The notes below the pieces were generated by a model, which was not told where the DNA came from, made no database searches, and saw only the letters and a list, made by a program, of their open reading frames with translations. From NCBI GenBank assembly GCA_963839205.1, contig CAWITU010000001.1, forward strand, positions 4,643 to 68,642: a DNA stretch of 64,000 bases, written 5' to 3'. The DNA comes from an uncultured bacterium (GTDB lineage: Bacteria; Patescibacteriota; Minisyncoccia; Phycocordibacterales; CAWITU01). Of this stretch, positions 7,578 through 60,322 are shown piece after piece (position 1 is the stretch's first letter; every line of letters starts with the position of its first letter). The translations under genes were made by a program, and so were the position numbers.

Positions 7578-8294
7578 ATGCGACTACACCGATTCTATTA
7601 TAAAGCGCAAATAGGGGATAAAAAGGAGATTTTTATTGAAAATAATCCATTAATTCACCAATGGAAGAATGTATTTCGTCTAAAACCAGCTGATAAAGTA
7701 ATCCTTTTTGATAATTCTGGTTTTGAATATTTGGCGGAGATTGTTTTGATAAGCAAAGATGAAACTAGAATTAAGATTTTGGAAGTTAAAGATAAGAAAG
7801 TTGAAAGCAGCGAAAAGCCGGATGTTAGGCTTTTCGCTGCTTTAATAAAGAAAGACAACTTTGAATTAATTATTCAAAAGGCAACCGAGCTCGGGGTTTC
7901 AGAAATTACTCCAATCATTTCAGATAGGAGTGAGAAAAAGGATCTAAATATGGAACGAGCTGAAAAGATTATTATTGAGGCGTCTGAGCAGTCGGGGAGA
8001 GTGCTTTTACCAATATTAAATAAGCCCCAAAAACTAGAAGAGGCGCTAGATGAAATAAATATGAATTTTGTTTCATTTAATCCTGAAGGAGAATCGCTAA
8101 AATCTGGGGATAATCTCAAAGCTCTAAAAGAAAAAGGCCCGATCGGGCTATTGATCGGGCCTGAAGGAGGCTGGAGTGATAAGGAGATTGAATTATTTAA
8201 ATCAAAAAATATTCCTATCTATAATCTCGGCTCTCAAATTCTTCGAGCCGAAACCGCCGCCATCGCTATCTCAGGATTATTTCTGCTCTCCTAG
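7578..8294 (+). CDS. rsmE: 16S rRNA (uracil1498-N3)-methyltransferase
   Basis: It has the MRLHRFY start, KATELGV and a LLIGPEGGWS C-terminal motif. Confidence 0.85.
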   Translation: MRLHRFYYKAQIGDKKEIFIENNPLIHQWKNVFRLKPADKVILFDNSGFEYLAEIVLISKDETRIKILEVKDKKVESSEKPDVRLFAALIKKDNFELIIQKATELGVSEITPIISDRSEKKDLNMERAEKIIIEASEQSGRVLLPILNKPQKLEEALDEINMNFVSFNPEGESLKSGDNLKALKEKGPIGLLIGPEGGWSDKEIELFKSKNIPIYNLGSQILRAETAAIAISGLFLLS

Positions 8295-17660: not shown

Positions 17661-18413
17661 ATGAGTAAGATCATCATTGCTAATTGGAAGATGAATCCGG
17701 AGACTCTGCTTCAAGCTAAAAATATTTTCCAATCAATAAAGGGTTATTCAAAAAATACTAAGTCAAAAATAGTTGTTTGTCCTCCATATATTTATATTAA
17801 AGATTTAATTGAACTTTCAAAAAAAACAAAAAAAATAGTTGTTGGAGCTCAAGATGTTTTTTTTGAAGGAGACGGACCCTTTACTGGGGAGGTAAGTGCA
17901 CCAATGCTTAAAAGTGTTGGTGCTAAGTATGTAATTGTGGGGCATTCGGAAAGGCGCGCACTCGGGGAGACGTCGTCCGACGTCTCCCGAAAAGTGCGCG
18001 CCGCCCTCTCCTTCGACATCTCTCCTATTCTTTGTATTGGTGAATCAGCTAGGGATGAAGATGGTGAGTACCTGAAGGATTTAAGAGAAATGCTTAAGTT
18101 GTCTCTTTTAAATATTGGAGAAAAAAATATTTCAAAGCTTATTATTGCTTACGAACCAATTTGGACCATAGGTGACGGACATTTTGCTATGACACCACAT
18201 GACATCCATCAGACAGCCGTCTTTATTAAAAAAGAACTAACAACCATTTTTGGAGAAAAGATTGGAAGAAAAATTCCAATACTGTATGGAGGATCTGTTG
18301 ATCCAAAAAATGCCGAAACAATCGTTAAAGAAAGTCATGTCAATGGTCTTCTTGTTGGTCGAGAAAGTCTCAAGGCCGAAAATTTTGGTCTTATAATAAA
18401 ATCAGTTAAGTAA
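17661..18413 (+). CDS. tpiA: triose-phosphate isomerase
   Basis: It has IIANWKMN, VGHSERR, CIGE, AYEPIWTIG and YGGSV motifs. Confidence 0.95.
   Translation: MSKIIIANWKMNPETLLQAKNIFQSIKGYSKNTKSKIVVCPPYIYIKDLIELSKKTKKIVVGAQDVFFEGDGPFTGEVSAPMLKSVGAKYVIVGHSERRALGETSSDVSRKVRAALSFDISPILCIGESARDEDGEYLKDLREMLKLSLLNIGEKNISKLIIAYEPIWTIGDGHFAMTPHDIHQTAVFIKKELTTIFGEKIGRKIPILYGGSVDPKNAETIVKESHVNGLLVGRESLKAENFGLIIKSVK
17953..18002. repeat. 50-nt GC-rich nested palindrome inside tpiA coding sequence
   Basis: GGCGCGCACT-CGGGGAGACGTCG-TC-CGACGTCTCCCG-AAA-AGTGCGCGCC. The outer 10-bp arms are perfect and the inner 12-bp arms have one bulge. It encodes RRALGETSSDVSRKVRAA. Confidence 0.9.
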
Positions 18414-20016: not shown

Positions 20017-21753
20017 ATGTCGGCAATGGCAAAATATTCTGTAAGAAAAGAGGCCTCACCGGACCTTGTAAAACACCTTCTTTTTCATCGTGGGGTTAGT
20101 GAAGAGGGTGAGATACTGAAGTTCCTTTCGCCTGACTATGTTAAGCATACCCATAATCCATTTTTGATGAAAGGAATAGCGGAGGCCGTCCAAAGGACGG
20201 CCTCCGCTATCGTCTCCGGCGAAAAAATTGCCATCTGGAGTGACTATGATGCCGACGGCATTCCAGGAGCGGTAGTTCTACATGATTTTTTTAAAAAAAT
20301 TGGCTATGAACATTTTCAAAATTACATTCCTAATAGGGCCGTGGAAGGGTTTGGCTTAAATATTGATGGCGTGAAAGAACTTTCTCAATCTGGCGTCAAA
20401 TTAATTATTACTATTGATTGTGGGATCTCTGATGTTAAAGAAGTTGAACAGGCAAATACTTTGGGAATTAATGTAATTATTACTGATCACCACTTGCCAG
20501 GTGAAAAATTGCCAAAAGCTTTTGCGATTATAAATCCAAAACAATCTGGTTGTGAGTATCCAGAAAAAATGCTCTGTGGTTCGGGGGTTATTTTTAAATT
20601 CGTTCAAGCACTTTTAAAAGATCCCGAAATTCAAAAGTATATTTCAGGGAAGGGGATTGAAATAAAAGAAGGGTGGGAAAAATGGTTATTAGATATGGTT
20701 GGTATTGCCACACTTTCAGATATGGTGCCCCTTGTCGGTGAGAATCGAATGTTTGCGTACTTCGGTTTAATGGTGCTACGCAAATCTCCGAGGGTTGGTC
20801 TCTCAAAGCTCCTGCGTAAGTTAAAAATTTCTCAAAAGGATGTCACTGAAGATGATATTGGTTTTATGATATCTCCCAGAATCAATGCTGCTTCTCGCAT
20901 GGGCGTTCCGTCCGATGCTTTTAAATTACTTTCAACAAGTGACGAAGGTGAGGCTGGAGCCTTGGCTGACCATTTAGATAAAATAAATAATGAGAGAAAG
21001 GGAACGGTGGCTGCAATGGTCAAAGAGATTAGGAAGAAAATGGAATCACGTCTAATTAGATCAACTATTGTCATGGGTAATCCTTCCTGGAGACCAACAT
21101 TACTAGGTTTGGCGGCTAACACTTTGATGAGGGAACATGCTCGACCAGTATTTCTTTGGGGAAGGGAGGGCGGAGAAATTATTAAAGGTTCTTGTCGGTC
21201 AGATGGTAGTGTAAGTGTTATGGACATTATGCAATCAACTCCGGAGGGAACCTTTTTGGATTTCGGTGGGCACGCTGCTTCTGGAGGGTTTTCTGTTTCA
21301 AATGAAAAAATTCATTTTCTGGAAGAAGCACTTGAATCAGCTTATCAAAAGGTGATTGAAGGGAAACCAAATATCGCAGATACAGAAATTATGATTGATA
21401 AAGAAATTTCTTTGAATGATGTGTCCTGGAATATGTATGGTCAGCTTGAAAAGTTAGCACCATTTGGAGAAGGGAATCCAAAACCGCTTTTTCTTATTTC
21501 AAAGTCCAAAGTTCAATCCGCAAAAATGTTTGGTAAAGAAAATAATCATTTTGAACTAACTCTTGTAAATTCATCAGGGAAAATTATTAAAGGAATTTGT
21601 TTCTTTGTTCAAGATTCTCCCTTTATTTCAAAAATTAACCCAGATAATCTTGCGACTCTTTCTGACACCTCGATTAATATCATTGCTTCTCTTGAGAAAA
21701 GTATGTTTCGAAATTATCCTGAGCTAAGATTGCGAATTGTTGATATTATTTAA
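20017..21753 (+). CDS. recJ: single-stranded-DNA-specific exonuclease RecJ
   Basis: It has DHH motifs SDYDADG, ITIDCG and ITDHH, plus the DHHA1 GGHAASGG. Confidence 0.9.
   Translation: MSAMAKYSVRKEASPDLVKHLLFHRGVSEEGEILKFLSPDYVKHTHNPFLMKGIAEAVQRTASAIVSGEKIAIWSDYDADGIPGAVVLHDFFKKIGYEHFQNYIPNRAVEGFGLNIDGVKELSQSGVKLIITIDCGISDVKEVEQANTLGINVIITDHHLPGEKLPKAFAIINPKQSGCEYPEKMLCGSGVIFKFVQALLKDPEIQKYISGKGIEIKEGWEKWLLDMVGIATLSDMVPLVGENRMFAYFGLMVLRKSPRVGLSKLLRKLKISQKDVTEDDIGFMISPRINAASRMGVPSDAFKLLSTSDEGEAGALADHLDKINNERKGTVAAMVKEIRKKMESRLIRSTIVMGNPSWRPTLLGLAANTLMREHARPVFLWGREGGEIIKGSCRSDGSVSVMDIMQSTPEGTFLDFGGHAASGGFSVSNEKIHFLEEALESAYQKVIEGKPNIADTEIMIDKEISLNDVSWNMYGQLEKLAPFGEGNPKPLFLISKSKVQSAKMFGKENNHFELTLVNSSGKIIKGICFFVQDSPFISKINPDNLATLSDTSINIIASLEKSMFRNYPELRLRIVDII
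20178..20208. repeat. perfect 14-bp-stem GC-rich palindrome inside recJ
   Basis: AGCGGAGGCCGTCC-AAA-GGACGGCCTCCGCT. It encodes AEAVQRTASA. Confidence 0.95.
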
Positions 21754-22308: not shown

Positions 22309-23940
22309 GTGTTTAATCACGAGATGATCTTTTGTATCGGATTTCTATTTGGTGTTTTTGTTTCATCTCTCTACCCGATATCTATTTTTGTTTCTATTGT
22401 TTTTGTAATCTCTTTAGTTAGCTTATTTGTAGTATTTTCATCTTTAAATTTTAATAAGACTAAATTAATTAGCTTATTTTTTCTGGCATTATTTTTAGGA
22501 TTTTTAAGAATTGGAATTTTTAATTACTATTCGGTGCCTGATAAACCTCTTCAGCAACTTGTTAATCAAAATATTTCTGGAAAAGCATTGATTACAGATG
22601 AGCCGGATAGGAGAGATACCACCATACGACTAACGGCTAAGGTTAAATCGATTAAAGGAGAAGGTGGCCAAATTAATATTAAAAACGGTGGAGTTATCTT
22701 TGTGACCGACTTAAATTCAATAATATCTTATGGTGACGAAGTCTCATTTTCTGGAAAGCTTCTACCGATTGAAGATTTTCAAACTGATTCTGATAGGATT
22801 TTTCATTATCAAAAATTTATGGAAAGGAGTGGTATTTATTATGATTTATACAATCCCAAATTAACTGTTATTTCTAGAGATAATGGTTTTTATCTACGTG
22901 CTTGGCTATTTAATCTAAAAGAGAATTTTCTAAAACAACTTTCTTCTGTGATTCCAAGGCCGGAGGTATTGCTGTTAGGGGGGCTATTGCTTGGCACCAA
23001 ACATTCTTTAGGAAATGATTTGCTGGCTGATTTTCAAAAGACGGGTGTCATTCATATGGTGGTAATTTCTGGGTATAACATTACTGTCGTGGTTGAGGCC
23101 ATGAGTGCAGTCTTTTCTTTCCTGCCCTTCCTTGCCAGAATTTTCTCTTCTTCGGTTGGTGTTATTCTTTTTGTTCTGATGACTGGCTTTTCTTCAGCGT
23201 CACTTCGAGCCGGTATTATGGTTTTAATTGCTCTATTAGGTAAAGCGGTTAGCAGAAAATATGATGTGGTTCGAGCGATCGTAATTTCAGCTTTTATTTT
23301 AACCATTCTTAGCCCGTTGGTTATAGTTTATGATCCGTCATTTCAATTAAGTTTCTTAGCCTCACTAGCTTTAATTTTTGTTTCGCCGATTATCGAGAAT
23401 TATTTTAAATTTGTACCAGAGTTTTTGAAACTCCAAGAGACAGTTATCGCAACGATATCAGTTATGATTTTTGTATTACCACTTTTGATTTATATGAATG
23501 GAGTTGTGTCATTTCTCTCAATTTTTGTGAATATTTTAGTTTTGTTTCCGGTGCCGTATGTGATGTTTCTCGGTTTTATAACTGGAGTAATTTCTTTTGT
23601 ATTTCCATTTCTAGCAATTCCTACTGGATTTATTTCTTATCTCATATTGCACTATATTATTTTTGTAGTTGAAACCGCCGCCCATTTGAAGTGGGCGGCG
23701 GCAACTGTTCCGGCTTTTCCGGCTTGGAATTTACTTGTTGTTTATATTTTCTATGCTTTCATTTTGTGGAAGTTTCACCGTGGCAAAGTCACAATACTTC
23801 CGGAAAAGCCTACTCTTCAAACCTCTTACCAATTAACTCCCAATCTAAATTATCAAAAACAGCCTCAACATATTTCTTCTTGTCAGCTGGAACATAATCA
23901 AAAAGATAAGAATGCTCCCACATATCCAATGCAAAAATAA
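22309..23940 (+). CDS. comEC: ComEC/Rec2 DNA internalisation channel (competence domain only)
   Basis: The protein is polytopic and carries the competence-domain signature GVIHMVVISGYNITVV. The 3' end overlaps the convergent SOD-like gene by 131 nt. Confidence 0.8.
   Translation: MFNHEMIFCIGFLFGVFVSSLYPISIFVSIVFVISLVSLFVVFSSLNFNKTKLISLFFLALFLGFLRIGIFNYYSVPDKPLQQLVNQNISGKALITDEPDRRDTTIRLTAKVKSIKGEGGQINIKNGGVIFVTDLNSIISYGDEVSFSGKLLPIEDFQTDSDRIFHYQKFMERSGIYYDLYNPKLTVISRDNGFYLRAWLFNLKENFLKQLSSVIPRPEVLLLGGLLLGTKHSLGNDLLADFQKTGVIHMVVISGYNITVVVEAMSAVFSFLPFLARIFSSSVGVILFVLMTGFSSASLRAGIMVLIALLGKAVSRKYDVVRAIVISAFILTILSPLVIVYDPSFQLSFLASLALIFVSPIIENYFKFVPEFLKLQETVIATISVMIFVLPLLIYMNGVVSFLSIFVNILVLFPVPYVMFLGFITGVISFVFPFLAIPTGFISYLILHYIIFVVETAAHLKWAAATVPAFPAWNLLVVYIFYAFILWKFHRGKVTILPEKPTLQTSYQLTPNLNYQKQPQHISSCQLEHNQKDKNAPTYPMQK
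23675..23701. repeat. perfect 10-bp-stem GC palindrome inside comEC
   Basis: CCGCCGCCCA-TTTGAAG-TGGGCGGCGG. Confidence 0.85.
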
Positions 23941-31621: not shown

Positions 31622-32203
31622 ATGGATTCACCTGTTGATATTTCTAATAAGAAAATTCTTTTCATTGGAGAAAAGAAGGAAGAATGTGAGTTGATTGAGA
31701 AGCAATTTGGTCAGGCAGTCTTTGCCGTCAGACATTTTGCTGGTAATGAATTTGTGAAGAGGCCGAGTGATTATCTGATAATTGATGCAAGCCGTAGACT
31801 CCAAATTGTCTACCCAGCCAAAAATGGGAAAAAGAAGGACGAAAGGGTAACTGCATTCAAAAAAACTTTCAGACACCAGGTTCACAACGCTTTGCTTAAT
31901 CGCATGGCGAAAAAAGTTGCTATCATAGTCGAGCACGGGGAATATTGGGCAACTGTCTTGGTTGCAGATCGACGTTTTCCAAAGTTGCGGTCAAAATTAG
32001 TTAGTTGCTGTTCGTATTATTACAAGGGACCGCAAGATGAAAAGGAGGAACACCTTAAGTTCGTAAATTCGTTTGAAAATGGTTGGACGGTTAAGGTCGG
32101 AAACCTTTTCTCTGAAAAGTTACCTCGCAGACTGACAATTAGGGCTGAAATCGATTACGGTCTAATTATCAGTGAAATAGAAAAGGAAAAAACAATGAAA
32201 TAG
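31622..32203 (+). CDS. hypothetical protein (193 aa) inserted between fusA and tuf
   Basis: It has the strong RBS AAGGAGGTGA 7 nt upstream of the ATG and its own terminator. No family recognised. Confidence 0.6.
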   Translation: MDSPVDISNKKILFIGEKKEECELIEKQFGQAVFAVRHFAGNEFVKRPSDYLIIDASRRLQIVYPAKNGKKKDERVTAFKKTFRHQVHNALLNRMAKKVAIIVEHGEYWATVLVADRRFPKLRSKLVSCCSYYYKGPQDEKEEHLKFVNSFENGWTVKVGNLFSEKLPRRLTIRAEIDYGLIISEIEKEKTMK

Positions 32204-32237
32204 CCCCGCGACATAATGAAAATGTCGCGGGGCTTTT
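32202..32237. terminator. bidirectional terminator, 13-bp perfect stem AGCCCCGCGACAT/ATGTCGCGGGGCT
   Basis: It sits between the convergent 31622 ORF and the pheA-like gene. A T-run follows on the plus strand. Confidence 0.8.
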
Positions 32238-38006: not shown

Positions 38007-38046
38007 CAATTATTGCCCCGCGGTCCGTCCTTTGGACGCCGCGGGG
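38007..38046 (+). terminator. rho-independent terminator GCCCCGCGG..CCGCGGGGC
   Basis: A long GC stem with a TTT loop is followed by TTTGTTT. Confidence 0.8.
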
Positions 38047-38072
38047 CCTTTGTTTATATAGTTTCTCTATTA

Positions 38073-41486: not shown

Positions 41487-41499
41487 TCAATAATGAAAA

Positions 41500-41528
41500 G
41501 GGCCTCCGCCTTAGGCGGAGGCCCTTTT
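41500..41528 (+). terminator. rho-independent terminator GGGCCTCCGCC-TTA-GGCGGAGGCCC
   Basis: A perfect 11-bp stem is followed by TTTT. Confidence 0.85.
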
Positions 41529-41549
41529 CATATTTGCTATAATAGTGCC

Positions 41550-48059: not shown

Positions 48060-50837
48060 ATGGAAGCGGTCCCATCACAATTTAATTCTCCTGAACAAGA
48101 GCTGGCGTACCTACGCGAGCAGGTGGCAAGTAAGGAACTTGAACTTAAGAAGAATAAAGAAGAGGCTTATCGACCGAATGTTGTTAATGAAACGATTCAG
48201 GAATACAAGAAACAGATTCCGGAAGAAGTTTTGAGCAAAGATCTCCGTTTGAGTCACATGCATAAGGAAGCAATAGTCTTAGATCTAAAACCTGAACCAC
48301 ATGATAGACAGATTGAAGAGCTAATCGGTCTGCTTCAAGAAAAAGGGGTTTTAAATACAATTGCTATTATCGAAAGAATGAACAATCCTCATCTAGAGGA
48401 CGATTTTCATCGTTTCTTGGTTCAATACATTAAACAAGGCTTACCAGCCCCAGGTCTTAAAGAGGGAGGTACTGAAGCAAAAGCTCTTGCTTATACACTT
48501 TACGAAGTTTCTTTGCCTGATATTAAAAAAGAGGAAGAAGAAAAGGAATTAAAACTTTTGGTTTCTTCAATGGAACAATTTTATTCTGGAATGCTTTCTG
48601 TAGAAATTGATTCAAAGAGAAGAAGTTACATGTCGATTGAACTTGCTGTTTCTGCTCATGATGAGGAGACGGTTTTTTATGCAGCGGTGCCAGATGATAA
48701 GAAGAATCTTTTTGAGAAACAAGTCTTGTCCATTTTTCCTCACGCCAAACTGATTGAGAAGAAAGATGATTACAATATTTTCAACGAAGATGGCGTTTCG
48801 GTCGGGTCATACCTGACCCAATCCCGAAACGCCATCTATCCAATCAAGACCTACGACCAATTTGATTATGATCCTTTGAATGTTGTTCTAAATACTTTTT
48901 CTAAACTCGATAGAGAGCACGAGGGGGCCTCAATTCAGCTTATATTCAGCCCTGCCGGCGATTATTATGTTAGCCGATACAAACACGCACTTAAGGAAAT
49001 TACGAGTGGCGTGAAGCTAAAAAAAGCTATAGATATTCGCCATACTGTCTTCGGGGAGTTTATGAAGACGGGTAAAGAAATCATGTCAGAAACTGTTAAA
49101 GATATGTTTAAACCTTCCGGTAAGAAAGGTGAAGTTGAAAAAGAAAAACAACAGCCGATTGACGAATCAGCGGTTGAAAACATCAAGAAAAAAGTTGAGA
49201 GTCCAATTGTTGATGCCAATATTAGAATTGTGGTATCAGCCCAAAATCAAATTAGGGCCAATCAAGTTCTTTCCGATCTTGAATCAGCTTTCAATCAATT
49301 TGATAACCCACTTGGTAACGCTATTAAATTTGAAAGACAAACAAAAGGAAATCTTTCCAAATTATTTAAAGATTATTCGTATAGACTATTTTCAGATGAA
49401 CATAAATTGCCACTAAGTATTAAGGAGGTGACAACGATGATTCATTTTCCTGGAGAAGCGATTAAATCATCACCCAATCTTAAGAGATCTAAAGCTGGTA
49501 CCTCGGCGGCGCCACTCAATCTTTCTCATGATGGAATTTTGCTTGGTTACAATAAAGACCGAAATATTGAGACTAAGATTTTCATGGGCAAGGAAGACCG
49601 TTTGCGCCATTTTTATACAATCGGTCAAACTGGAACTGGTAAGACAAACTTCCTGAAAAATATGATTATTCAGGACATTCAAAATGGGGACGGTGTTTGT
49701 ATGATTGACCCACACGGCTCTGATATTCAAGATGTTTTGGCTAACATTCCAAAAGAACGTTACGAAGATGTTATTTATTTTGACCCAAGCTACACCGGAC
49801 GTCCGATGGCGCTTAACATGCTTGAGTATGATCCAGCTTTTCCAGAGCAAAAGACCTTCGTTGTTAACGAATTATTTAATATTTTCCAAAAATTGTACGG
49901 TGGAAACCCTGAATCAATGGGTCCAATGTTTGAACAGTATTTTAGAAATTCCACCATGCTTGTTATTGAGGACCCAGAAACAGGGAATACTCTGCTTGAT
50001 GTCTCACGTGTAATGTCTAACAAATCTTTTAGAGATTTGAAACTTTCAAGATGTAAAAATCCAATTGTTGTTCAGTTCTGGAAAGAGATTGCTGAGAAGG
50101 CTGGGGGAGAAAGTTCACTTGCCAACATTGTTCCATATATCACTAGCAAATTTGATATATTCTTGGCTAACGACATCATGCGTCCGATTGTCGCTCAAGA
50201 ACATTCGTCCTTTAATTTCCGAGACATTATGGATAATAAGAAAATTCTTTTGGTCAATTTGGCCAAAGGTAGGCTTGGCGATATTAACGCCAATCTTCTC
50301 GGTCTAATTTTGGTTGGTAAAATTCTAATGGCAGCTCTTTCAAGAGTTGACTCATTCGGTAAAGATTTACCGCCTTTCTATTTGTACATCGATGAATTCC
50401 AAAATATTACGACTAATTCGATTTCCACGATTCTGTCTGAGGCTCGAAAGTATAAATTAAGTTTGACCATTGCCCACCAATTCATTGCCCAGCTTGAAGA
50501 CGATATTAGAGATTCAGTTTTTGGAAACGTCGGTTCAATTGCTTCATTCCGCGTCGGCGCCGAAGACGCGGAATATTTAGAGAAACAATTTGATCCAGTT
50601 TTTACTCGTTCAGATATTATGAATTTGGATAATTACAACGCTTACATAAAAATGCTCTCTGGCGGTGCTCCGGTTCGTCCATTCAACATTGTCACTCTCG
50701 TAGCTCCAAGAGGTAATCCAGACATCATTGCTAATCTAAAAGAACTTTCTTATCTAAAGTTTGGTAAAGACAAGGACGAAGTCCAAGAAACTATTATGGA
50801 GAAGTACAAAAAAGCCCCAGTTTCTGATAGAATCTAG
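48060..50837 (+). CDS. large P-loop ATPase of the VirD4/TraD/HerA-FtsK-like type (coupling-protein-like) with ~480-aa unknown N-terminal half
   Basis: Walker A GQTGTGKTNF, Walker B-like FYLYIDEFQN, later TIAHQF. Confidence 0.65.
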   Translation: MEAVPSQFNSPEQELAYLREQVASKELELKKNKEEAYRPNVVNETIQEYKKQIPEEVLSKDLRLSHMHKEAIVLDLKPEPHDRQIEELIGLLQEKGVLNTIAIIERMNNPHLEDDFHRFLVQYIKQGLPAPGLKEGGTEAKALAYTLYEVSLPDIKKEEEEKELKLLVSSMEQFYSGMLSVEIDSKRRSYMSIELAVSAHDEETVFYAAVPDDKKNLFEKQVLSIFPHAKLIEKKDDYNIFNEDGVSVGSYLTQSRNAIYPIKTYDQFDYDPLNVVLNTFSKLDREHEGASIQLIFSPAGDYYVSRYKHALKEITSGVKLKKAIDIRHTVFGEFMKTGKEIMSETVKDMFKPSGKKGEVEKEKQQPIDESAVENIKKKVESPIVDANIRIVVSAQNQIRANQVLSDLESAFNQFDNPLGNAIKFERQTKGNLSKLFKDYSYRLFSDEHKLPLSIKEVTTMIHFPGEAIKSSPNLKRSKAGTSAAPLNLSHDGILLGYNKDRNIETKIFMGKEDRLRHFYTIGQTGTGKTNFLKNMIIQDIQNGDGVCMIDPHGSDIQDVLANIPKERYEDVIYFDPSYTGRPMALNMLEYDPAFPEQKTFVVNELFNIFQKLYGGNPESMGPMFEQYFRNSTMLVIEDPETGNTLLDVSRVMSNKSFRDLKLSRCKNPIVVQFWKEIAEKAGGESSLANIVPYITSKFDIFLANDIMRPIVAQEHSSFNFRDIMDNKKILLVNLAKGRLGDINANLLGLILVGKILMAALSRVDSFGKDLPPFYLYIDEFQNITTNSISTILSEARKYKLSLTIAHQFIAQLEDDIRDSVFGNVGSIASFRVGAEDAEYLEKQFDPVFTRSDIMNLDNYNAYIKMLSGGAPVRPFNIVTLVAPRGNPDIIANLKELSYLKFGKDKDEVQETIMEKYKKAPVSDRI
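48789..48836. repeat. 48-nt nested GC-rich palindrome inside the ATPase gene
   Basis: GATGGCGTTTCGG (13 bp, perfect) .. GGGTCA-TACC-TGACCC .. CCGAAACGCCATC. Confidence 0.95.
50546..50574. repeat. perfect 10-bp-stem palindrome inside the ATPase gene
   Basis: ATTCCGCGTC-GGCGCCGAA-GACGCGGAAT. Confidence 0.85.
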
Positions 50838-50870: not shown

Positions 50871-51482
50871 ATGGCAGAACAAAAACATCAGGATGAAAGA
50901 ACGTTGATTATTATCAAGCCAGACGGCGTTCAGAGAAGTTTGATTGGAGAGATAATTCAGCGATATGAAAGAGTTGGTCTAAAACTTCTCGGAGTTAAGA
51001 TGGTGGTGCCGACAGTTGATCATATTGAGAAACATTACACCCTTGATCCAAATTGGCGGAGAGTAACAGGTGAAAAAACAATCAAAGGGTATCAGGATAA
51101 GGGGATGACGCCTCCATCAATGGACCCATTAGAGATCACGGGCCGAATTTTGGAAGGTCTTAAGAAATATATTTCGAGTGGTCCTGTCATTGCTATGGTT
51201 TGGCAGGGAGCTCATGCTGTAAAGATTGTTAGAAAGATTACTGGAGGTACTGAACCCCTCACGTCTGACGTTGGATCTATTCGAGGAGACTTCGTTTTGG
51301 ACTCATACCAACTTTCTGACACCGATGGAAGAGCAGTTAGAAACTTAGTGCACGCATCTGGTTCACCGGACGAAGCAAATATGGAAATCAATCACTGGTT
51401 TAAAGCAGATGAGCTAATTGATTACAGATTAATTCAAGACCAGATTCTCTATGACGTCAATTTGGATGGAATTCTTGAATAA
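50871..51482 (+). CDS. ndk: nucleoside-diphosphate kinase (long form with internal insertion)
   Basis: ERTLIIIKPDGVQR.., ..NLVHASGS.. active-site region. It is 203 aa versus the usual ~140. Confidence 0.8.
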   Translation: MAEQKHQDERTLIIIKPDGVQRSLIGEIIQRYERVGLKLLGVKMVVPTVDHIEKHYTLDPNWRRVTGEKTIKGYQDKGMTPPSMDPLEITGRILEGLKKYISSGPVIAMVWQGAHAVKIVRKITGGTEPLTSDVGSIRGDFVLDSYQLSDTDGRAVRNLVHASGSPDEANMEINHWFKADELIDYRLIQDQILYDVNLDGILE

Positions 51483-51559: not shown

Positions 51560-51732
51560 AGGTTACTCGGGATATAATCTAGATTAATTTTATAGTCAGG
51601 GATCTCAAGTCATTCTAGACCTTGGTCCAGATTGCAGAGAACCCACCTAGCCTAAAGCTGGGTCTATATCTTCGAGTAATCGAATCAGTGCGCCCCCGCG
51701 AAGCTCCGAAGGAGCGAAGTGGGGGCGCTTTG
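51560..51732 (+). ncRNA. candidate structured small RNA (~170 nt)
   Basis: A TATAAT at 51548-51553 precedes it. A 16/17-bp closing helix GGTTACTCGGGATATA (51561-51576) / TATATCTTCGAGTAATC (51665-51681) includes G-U pairs. A terminal stem-loop GCGCCCCC..GCTCC-GAA-GGAGC..GGGGGCGC lies at 51690-51728. No ORF is present. Confidence 0.35.
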
Positions 51733-51745
51733 ATATAATAACCAT

Positions 51746-52162
51746 ATGAAAAGCGCACCTTTATTTAAATTACTCTTCAGTCTCTTGGTGGTTATTGCCT
51801 CTTTACATATTTTGTCTAGTTTCTTGTATTTATATTGGTCAATTCAATGGATTCATTTAATTATTCATTTCTTAAGCGGAATATTAGTTAGTCTTTCGGC
51901 TTTGTGTTTAATTTATGTTTCTGAATATGATTTTTTAAGAAAGAGGATTTCTGAAGCGCCGATAGCGACGTTCTTTGTCGCTATCGGCGCTTCACTTGTT
52001 GCAGGTATTCTCTGGGAGGTCTTTGAGCTAACTTTTGGTATAACTTTTCTTTCTGATCAGAACTACTTATCCCAAAATGGCTCCGAAGTAATTGCTGCTC
52101 TGTCTGGGGGACTCATTGGTTGGGCTTATTTTTCTTACAAACACCTCAATCATCGTGTATAA
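51746..52162 (+). CDS. hypothetical integral membrane protein (leaderless start)
   Basis: TGaTATAAT (51731-51739) lies 6 nt before the ATG. The protein has four hydrophobic segments. Confidence 0.6.
   Translation: MKSAPLFKLLFSLLVVIASLHILSSFLYLYWSIQWIHLIIHFLSGILVSLSALCLIYVSEYDFLRKRISEAPIATFFVAIGASLVAGILWEVFELTFGITFLSDQNYLSQNGSEVIAALSGGLIGWAYFSYKHLNHRV
51953..51993. repeat. perfect 17-bp-stem GC-rich palindrome inside the membrane-protein gene
   Basis: GAAGCGCCGATAGCGAC-GTTCTTT-GTCGCTATCGGCGCTTC. It encodes EAPIATFFVAIGAS. Confidence 0.95.
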
Positions 52163-54182: not shown

Positions 54183-54205
54183 TACAAAAAGTTAACATAG
54201 AAAAA

Positions 54206-54234
54206 GGGCCCCAGCCTAAGGCTGGGGCCCTTTT
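54206..54234. terminator. bidirectional terminator GGGCCCCAGCC-TAA-GGCTGGGGCCC
   Basis: Perfect 11-bp stem flanked by an A-run and a T-run, between convergent genes. Confidence 0.85.
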
Positions 54235-60284: not shown

Positions 60285-60322
60285 AAAAAATCAGCCCCGC
60301 GCATATAGAAATGCGCGGGGCT
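60285..60322 (-). terminator. rho-independent terminator AGCCCCGCGCAT/ATGCGCGGGGCT
   Basis: Perfect 12-bp stem, followed on the minus strand by GATTTTTT. Confidence 0.85.

Follow-up and report, generated by a model that had tools for sequence, protein, structure and literature searches.

A perfect hairpin within the recJ coding sequence of a Parcubacteria-type bacterium as a probable product of template switching

Introduction

How a perfect, GC-rich hairpin comes to lie within the conserved coding sequence of a DNA-repair gene, and whether it serves a purpose there, are questions raised by the recJ gene of an uncultured bacterium. This gene lies in a 64,000-nucleotide (nt) stretch of contig CAWITU010000001.1 (assembly GCA_963839205.1), the whole of which is referred to below as the window. 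Its intact open reading frame (ORF; positions 20017-21753, + strand) encodes 578 residues with the Pfam domains DHH, DHHA1 and RecJ_OB. The protein is 55-62% identical to RecJ proteins of Parcubacteria and matches the RecJ structures 8Y30 and 5F54 of the PDB, and RecJ homologues place the window in Parcubacteria/Paceibacterota, within the candidate phyla radiation (CPR). The hairpin is real and non-random, and chance is excluded as its source. Comparison with related sequences suggests that it is probably a product of quasipalindrome template switching, which was tolerated in a RecJ alpha-helix before DHH motif I.

The hairpin and the RecJ segment that it encodes

The hairpin occupies positions 20176-20210 of the + strand, 160 nt into the conserved ORF, and consists of a left (5') arm, ATAGCGGAGGCCGTCC (20176-20191), a loop of three bases, AAA (20192-20194), and a right (3') arm, GGACGGCCTCCGCTAT (20195-20210). 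All 16 pairs of the stem are Watson-Crick, with no mismatch and no G-T or G-U pair. An earlier note on this DNA had described a perfect stem, AGCGGAGGCCGTCC-AAA-GGACGGCCTCCGCT, at 20178-20208; the pairing is indeed perfect and runs 2 bp further on each side, giving 16 bp rather than 14. The same note had remarked on a GC-rich stem within a gene of less than 40% GC, and this contrast is borne out by values of 79% for the 14-nt arms, 69% for the 16-bp stem and 63% for the 35-nt hairpin, against 38.6% for the recJ ORF.

Both arms are translated. The left arm comprises codons I54, A55, E56, A57 and V58 and the first base of Q59, the loop supplies the remaining two bases of Q59 and the first of R60, and the right arm provides the last two bases of R60, codons T61, A62, S63 and A64, and the first two bases of I65. 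The encoded residues 54-65, IAEAVQRTASAI (I-AEAVQRTASA-I), lie ten residues upstream of DHH motif I, SDYDADG (20239-20259, + strand). Alignments with 119 protein homologues and with the recJ genes of ~72 relatives show no extra residues at the site, in agreement with the earlier description of AEAVQRTASA as standing just before the first DHH motif without additional length. The element is a perfect inverted repeat in an intact, conserved coding sequence, to which it adds nothing in length.

The suggestion that the hairpin might mark a domain boundary was not borne out. In an AlphaFold model (mean predicted local distance difference test score, pLDDT, of 90), residues 54-67 form one confident alpha-helix (pLDDT ~98 for residues 51-70), and the next strand (residues 70-75) leads directly into DHH motif I (residues 75-81). 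The hairpin-encoded region also aligns with the equivalent stretch of the solved structures 8Y30 and 5F54.

Folding of the hairpin is far more favourable than composition would predict. Its folding energy is -41.4 kcal/mol for RNA (z -6.95) and -22.1 kcal/mol for DNA (z -8.27), and in neither case did any of 200 shuffled sequences fold as well. Chimeric reads can yield perfect inverted repeats, and the sequence belongs to a metagenome-assembled genome judged from assemblies rather than reads, so that an assembly or amplification artefact, for example a fold-back chimera, has to be considered. This is, nevertheless, highly improbable. Base-for-base identical DNA is present in a separately assembled Logan contig (run ERR10755936), the frame and length of recJ are kept exactly, and the conserved residues are retained. 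Moreover, seven such in-frame hairpins occur in the window, in different genes, and similar intragenic hairpins are found in relatives that come from many other studies.

Several known types of element were examined and rejected. An intrinsic terminator would share the GC-rich stem and the loop of 3-4 nt, and the window terminators at 41493-41531 and 54202-54234 look similar to the recJ hairpin and even share short strings with it. The recJ hairpin differs from terminators in lacking a T/U tract on either strand (downstream CGTCTCCGGCG, minus strand TCCTTTCATC) and in lying within a conserved ORF, and a terminator scan made no call. An attenuator was ruled out, with no T-run and no Rfam match; a search of the window with Rfam 15 gave no hits at gathering thresholds and only chance-level matches at E<=1 (18 bits against a threshold of 208). 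The codons upstream of the hairpin, CCA TTT TTG ATG AAA GGA, contain no in-frame slippery heptamer (X XXY YYZ) of the kind expected 5-9 nt before the stem for a -1 frameshift stimulator, and the full-length zero-frame product is conserved. Thermophily does not account for the GC-rich stems, as the IVYWREL estimate is ~35 C and equal to that of relatives.

Comparison with the recJ genes of relatives

The site was compared across 1.35 Mb of sequence from related genomes, comprising 80 recJ loci, to which were added the genes of two of the closest homologues in the hairpin region, L087 (for P0008) and L088 (for P0051). The protein database holds no strain-level RecJ variants of this genome; apart from an identical entry, the nearest protein is ~62% identical. 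A comparable structure at the hairpin site is present in none of the ~72 relatives' recJ genes, and a conserved regulatory structure of recJ was rejected on the ground that no relative folds there. For a 63-nt segment the folding energy is -35.7 kcal/mol in the window and -2 to -20 kcal/mol in relatives.

The two arms differ in how far they depart from the family. The left-arm codons of the window (ATA GCG GAG GCC GTC) resemble those of the closest relatives, L087 (ATG GCG AAG GCG GTG) and L088 (ATA GAG AGC GCG GTC), and A55 (GCG) is common to the window and L087. In the right arm the window has ACG GCC TCC GCT ATC where L087 has ATT TTG AAA GCG ATT and L088 has ATT TTG GAA GCG ATT. Eight of the nine bases of codons 61-63 differ from L087/L088, each difference raising complementarity to the left arm. 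The change is concentrated in the right-arm core, CGGCCTCC (20198-20205, + strand), which is the exact reverse complement of GGAGGCCG at 20181-20188. Here the window shows eight mismatches in a row to the consensus of 72 relatives, which have TT TTG AA or TT TTT AA, and each base is common to just 0-21% of 71 relatives. With a mean share of 0.08 among these 71, the core is the most lineage-unique 8-mer of recJ (rank 1 of 1,639 windows of that size).

At the protein level the family pattern is M-[DE]-[KR]-A-V-x-R-[IV]-[LI]-x-A-I, of which the window retains A57, V58, R60, A64 and I65, with A57 and V58 representing the family consensus. E56 stands where 113 of the 119 homologues have K or R, T61 where 115 have I/V/L, and A62 where 112 have L/I/V/F/M, such that a conserved Ile-Leu pair (I61, L62) has become Thr-Ala. 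In the stem, the C of the T61 codon (ACG) is matched to the G of the V58 codon (GTC). A G-U pair at this position would have kept isoleucine (AUx), which argues that the constraint is Watson-Crick complementarity at the level of DNA, and not RNA folding.

Template switching as the probable origin

Four properties of the hairpin are observed directly, namely its Watson-Crick perfection, its unchanged length, its absence in relatives, and a change that falls mainly in the right-arm core and equals the complement of the left arm. A clustered change in one arm that matches the complement of the other, with Watson-Crick pairs only and no change in length, is the signature expected of a quasipalindrome template switch. 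The switch event itself, its direction and its neutrality are inferred.

In the proposed mechanism, the strand growing during replication of recJ would pair back on the just-made left arm, the putative template, or on the opposite strand. Some 8-12 nt would then be copied from the left arm before the strand returned to its proper template, and an ancestral ...ATT TTG RAA GCG... would be overwritten in the right arm, the putative copy, by ...ACG GCC TCC GCT..., which reverse-complements the left arm. A single step of this kind, or a few, could raise a weak inverted repeat to a palindrome that is perfect over 16 bp. The event would have stayed in frame by chance and spared the most conserved residues, A57, V58, R60, A64 and I65. 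On a helix that runs from surface to core, it would have replaced K/R56 by E (unless E was the ancestral residue), I61 by T and L62 by A. RecJ would have remained usable and the allele would have survived, leaving the hairpin as a tolerated "coding palindrome" without a dedicated function, which further arm-to-arm correction may keep perfect.

An intrastrand switch in nascent leading-strand DNA would be predicted to copy from the 5' arm to the 3' arm. Most 2-kb bins have positive GC skew, and cumulative skew rises across the window, a pattern that fits the + strand being the leading strand.

Other hairpins in the window

The recJ hairpin is not alone. Hairpins with a perfect stem of at least 10 bp and a loop of 3-9 nt number 17 in the window, against 0.68 expected from block-wise dinucleotide shuffles, and 13 of them are GC-rich, against an expectation of 0.017. 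Several of the 17 are ordinary intergenic terminators. Seven lie well inside ORFs, where synonymous-codon shuffles that keep both protein and codon usage predict 0.375, and neither type of shuffled control reproduces such hairpins. The seven are found in rsmE (two), tpiA, recJ, comEC, a VirD4-like gene and the ORF at 51746-52162. A further, two-tier hairpin (48789-48836) emerged from a sliding fold scan, in which the six strongest intragenic structures comprise 107 Watson-Crick and 2 G-U pairs, whereas weaker background folds are far richer in G-U (0-6 each, against 11-18 Watson-Crick pairs). The positions of the hairpins within genes are scattered, as a mutational process would give.

All of these intragenic hairpins are on the + strand and belong to the same class as that of recJ; the seven besides that of recJ are Watson-Crick-perfect and mostly GC-rich. 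The tpiA hairpin (17953-18002) is two-tiered, with 20 Watson-Crick pairs; its left arm encodes the conserved RRALGETS, and its right arm lies in a variable helix and is shaped to complement the left. The earlier note had already placed the recJ and tpiA hairpins in one class despite their unrelated sequences, and both are in frame, GC-rich and Watson-Crick-only and add no length. In comEC (23675-23701) the hairpin is a perfect 10-bp stem of 90% GC, and both arms deviate, with TAAHLKWAAA in place of the family's FFSxLPFASx. The rsmE gene carries a perfect 16-bp hairpin at 7804-7843 and a second at 8135-8162. The two-tier hairpin at 48789-48836, with 19 Watson-Crick pairs, lies in the VirD4/TraG-like gene, which has another at 50546-50574, and the unannotated ORF at 51746-52162, for which there is a weak homologue in locus L027, contains an 18-bp perfect hairpin (51952-51994). 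Where homologues were at hand, for tpiA, comEC and the first rsmE hairpin (the last with a single homologue), no added length was found.

Some further structures were seen in passing. A homologue of rsmE in a relative (L056, 967-1010) has a 20-bp perfect hairpin (GGAGCGGAAAATTTTTCAAA/GGTT/...) near the aligned position of window 8135-8162. Intergenic, terminator-like hairpins form look-alike groups (32202-32234, 60293-60322 and 38015-38047; 41493-41531 and 54202-54234), one sharing AGCCCCGCG or GCCCCGCG and another AAAAGGGCC.C.GCCT, which points to duplicated terminators or to a narrow sequence space. Also intergenic, and very stable, is a hairpin at 51685-51733 (-36 kcal/mol, GTGCGCCCCCGCGAAGCTCCGAAGGAGCGAAGTGGGGGCGC) between the gene at 50871-51482, which follows the VirD4/TraG-like gene, and the start of the ORF at 51746; it could be a terminator or a site resembling an origin of transfer (oriT) of a conjugative module. 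ARAGORN found no tRNA genes in the window, though it includes a ribosomal-protein/EF-Tu region.

The resemblance between hairpins raises the question of whether the apical part of the recJ hairpin was copied from another hairpin of the same genome by ectopic templating or gene conversion, the hairpins then forming a loose family of modules. The candidate source is the terminator-like hairpin at 38015-38047, 18 kb away, whose reverse complement has the 14-nt string CGTCCAAAGGACGG in common with the recJ hairpin, while the next-longest strings among 231 hairpin pairs are of 9 nt; one 9-nt string, GCGGAGGCC, is common to the recJ hairpin and the terminator at 41493-41531. The 14-mer amounts, however, to only ~9 independent bases (those of a 5-bp stem and the loop, plus one), and 0.41 hits per window are expected by chance in a pattern search that tolerates up to 2 mismatches, so that a chance match is plausible, the more so as GC-rich stems here draw on a narrow sequence space. 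In addition, the shared part includes the A57 and V58 codons, which are ancestral in relatives, and the apical motif CGTCCAAAGGACG recurs in none of the 80 relatives' loci. An ectopic origin is accordingly considered improbable.

A related idea is the in-frame insertion into recJ of a small palindromic element, mobile or selfish, of the type of Rickettsia palindromic elements (RPEs), repetitive extragenic palindromes (REPs) or miniature inverted-repeat transposable elements (MITEs). In-frame palindromic insertions are known in Rickettsia and offer a precedent, and RPEs form a multi-copy family of conserved sequence that adds 30-50 residues. In relatives, too, recJ has in-frame insertions that form hairpins, at a different place in the gene, the loop preceding GWEKW. 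The recJ hairpin resembles RPE and REP/MITE repeats in being palindromic DNA that can sit in an ORF without destroying it, and REPs are likewise multi-copy and of conserved sequence, but extragenic (PMC3733652). It differs from them in being single-copy in the 64-kb window, in adding no residues relative to any homologue, and in deriving from recJ's own codons, its left arm matching the ancestral ones. No second copy of a recJ arm occurs within 3 mismatches in the window, in which the hairpins have unrelated sequences, and in public metagenomes the same arms appear only in five unrelated contigs of 68-75% GC, with no viral contig among them. On present data the mobile-element explanation is close to refuted.

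Hairpins in relatives

Intragenic perfect hairpins are also in excess in the relatives, where 49 occur in the 1.35 Mb, several-fold above shuffle expectation and at about one third of the window's density. Their loops are tight, with 3-4 nt in 38 of the 49. Pairing shows no codon-phase bias (19:17:13 among the 49), again as a mutational process would give, and optimisation of codon phase was rejected.

Within recJ itself, two distant relatives independently have perfect hairpins at one and the same site (L005, 2063-2105, 20 bp; L026, 10657-10689, 15 bp). In both cases the conserved GWEKWL or GQEKWL codons recur in inverted form as the left arm, which adds residues to the variable loop immediately before them. 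The loop before GWEKW was seen to be a hotspot of hairpin-forming insertions, and loci L027, L037, L048 and L080 also fold strongly there. Locus L060 shows one consensus arm and one deviant arm.

Four further relatives, whose recJ genes are ~70% identical, carry a common in-frame hairpin insertion of ~70 nt in recJ (L011, 10565-10657; L028, 592-681; L043, 10565-10654; L044, 10592-10663). Its pairing is 96% complete; in 9 of 19 pairs both bases have changed, and in no pair has just one. Persistence and co-evolution of coding hairpins are therefore possible in this clade, through either selection or repeated arm-to-arm correction. The apical CTTAACGCAGACTAATCG of this insertion is conserved, and the insertion is single-copy at each locus. 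An attempt to polarise hairpins through close pairs among the 80 loci was uninformative; just L049 and L040 are close (92.5%), and two synonymous differences between them perfect a 10-bp stem. A stretch of L071 (6464-7210) that resembles an ORF packs three perfect hairpins (14-15 bp, one with 100% GC) into 200 nt and may be non-coding or a hairpin array.

Selection or mutation

The likeliest alternative is that the recJ hairpin is a selected structural signal, one of a lineage-specific set present in several genes. As RNA, it might pause the ribosome or RNA polymerase, or act as a processing or stability element of the recJ mRNA; as DNA, it might be recognised as a cruciform or single-strand hairpin in replication, DNA uptake or repair. 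The ~19-fold excess of intragenic perfect hairpins over synonymous shuffles would be expected of such a set, as would strikingly GC-rich stems with rare codons in both arms and the predominance of 3-4 nt loops among the relatives' hairpins. The near-complete pairing and two-sided changes of the insertion common to L011, L028, L043 and L044 can be read in the same way, and the cost to the protein (I61T, L62A) could mean that the structure matters. However, covariation without one-sided intermediates is also produced by template switching (PMC8794818), and the hairpin is missing at its site in ~72 relatives and 119 protein homologues, so that it is not a conserved feature of recJ. There is no G-U pair where an RNA structure would tolerate one and thereby spare conserved residues, nor is there a U-tract, an Rfam family or a slippery heptamer upstream. 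Positions within genes and pairing phases look random, and the hairpins have no common sequence motif for a protein to recognise. Selection for a signal is thus regarded as unlikely, albeit worth keeping in view.

Template switching followed by neutral survival, in turn, does not explain every observation with equal ease. At two pairs, 20180/20206 and 20191/20195, it is the left base that is unusual relative to the broad consensus, and E56 (GAG), in the supposed template arm, is without precedent among the 119 homologues. This incomplete polarity of the arms, together with the unprecedented E56, makes more than one correction step, or some selection, likely. The left arm, too, uses rare G/C-ending codons, and the 12 codons of the hairpin are mostly rare, with a joint synonymous-codon probability of 2e-9. 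The ancestral allele is reconstructed from distant relatives, the nearest RecJ being ~62% identical, and in these any complementarity is only weak; in L087 and L088 (~60% identical) it is limited to ATnGC...GCGAT and TCC/GGA-type pairs, with a 99-nt stretch folding at ~-21 kcal/mol. The intragenic hairpins of the window are far GC-richer (50-90%) than the genome, and those of relatives are not (+0.03 over locus GC). GC-rich stems would be explicable under a neutral process if only stable stems trigger or survive switching. Finally, the covarying in-frame hairpin in recJ of four relatives has persisted for long, as selection would also produce. These points weigh against template switching, which is held here as a probable rather than a firm account of the recJ hairpin.

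Relation to known systems

The closest known mechanism is quasipalindrome template switching, and the closest known phenomenon is the coding palindromes of Nematomorpha mitochondria. In bacteria, template switching turns imperfect inverted repeats into perfect ones, as documented in E. coli, and has been invoked for the general excess of perfect repeats (PMC5941160). The recJ hairpin shares with the mutations of the Ripley model and of E. coli reporters (PMC5941160, PMC7202029) a clustered change equal to the complement of the other arm, Watson-Crick pairing only, a tight loop, and an excess over chance that grows with arm length. It departs from these systems in that the event lies inside a conserved protein-coding helix and has cost conserved residues, in that its stem, at 16 bp and 69% GC, is a long one where the genome has 38% GC, and in that its ancestral quasipalindrome is reconstructed only from relatives ~60% identical, the case being known from sequence alone.

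The palindromes within the genes of Nematomorpha mitochondria are perfect, in-frame, scattered and dynamic, and their authors suggest conversion or template switching over function (PMC6649704). Like the recJ hairpin, they occur in functional protein genes with both arms translated, are either perfect or absent, and are gained or lost between relatives. In contrast, they reach 284 bp, reside in animal mitochondria and have a preferred pairing phase, whereas the recJ stem is of 16 bp in a free-living or episymbiotic CPR bacterium, and no phase is preferred here. A single template switch can also give rise to a perfect stem, or keep one perfect, with no G-U intermediate (PMC8794818). The recJ hairpin would be such a stem made perfect in one event, and the insertion common to L011, L028, L043 and L044 shows comparable compensatory changes without G-U intermediates. 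The stems in that study are, however, functional and lie in rRNA and other non-coding RNA genes, while the recJ stem lies in the coding region of an mRNA and has no known structural role.

A 2026 survey, which used the same definition of perfect repeats as here (arms of at least 10 bp, spacers of up to 8), found the highest densities of perfect inverted repeats of any phyla in Ca. Campbellbacteria and Ca. Kaiserbacteria, both Parcubacteria-type, with ~10-12 per kb where bacteria average close to 3 (PMC13155455). The 17 hairpins of ~30 nt in 64 kb amount to ~8 bp per kb, which agrees with the survey provided that its figures are in base pairs per kb, the unit that the paper gives for the bacterial mean (PMC13155455). 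The recJ hairpin belongs to this lineage-wide excess of perfect inverted repeats. Enrichment at the level of the lineage is thus already published, and what is added here is an example in a coding region with a readable mutational footprint.

Implications

At a practical level, hairpins of this kind can mislead predictors of terminators or small RNAs and can stall polymerases in sequencing or cloning.

A wider possibility, speculative and rather doubtful at present, is that the lineage carries GC-rich perfect "coding palindromes" throughout its genome, of which the recJ hairpin is one, kept perfect by lineage-specific conversion or even used as DNA or RNA signals. If true, this would give bacteria their first counterpart to the coding palindromes of Nematomorpha mitochondria and would provide a mechanistic account of the record inverted-repeat densities in Parcubacteria-type phyla. 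Were the hairpins actively maintained or functional, they would represent a new layer of constraint on bacterial coding sequence.

As a probable product of template switching, the recJ hairpin would provide a clean example from nature of a switch that overwrote conserved codons of a DNA-repair gene and was nevertheless fixed, and it may help to explain why Parcubacteria-type phyla rank highest in inverted-repeat density. It fits the idea that, in the reduced genomes of the CPR, mutation at DNA secondary structure leaves visible marks in proteins, and lineage-specific substitutions of this type in alignments should not be taken as adaptive.

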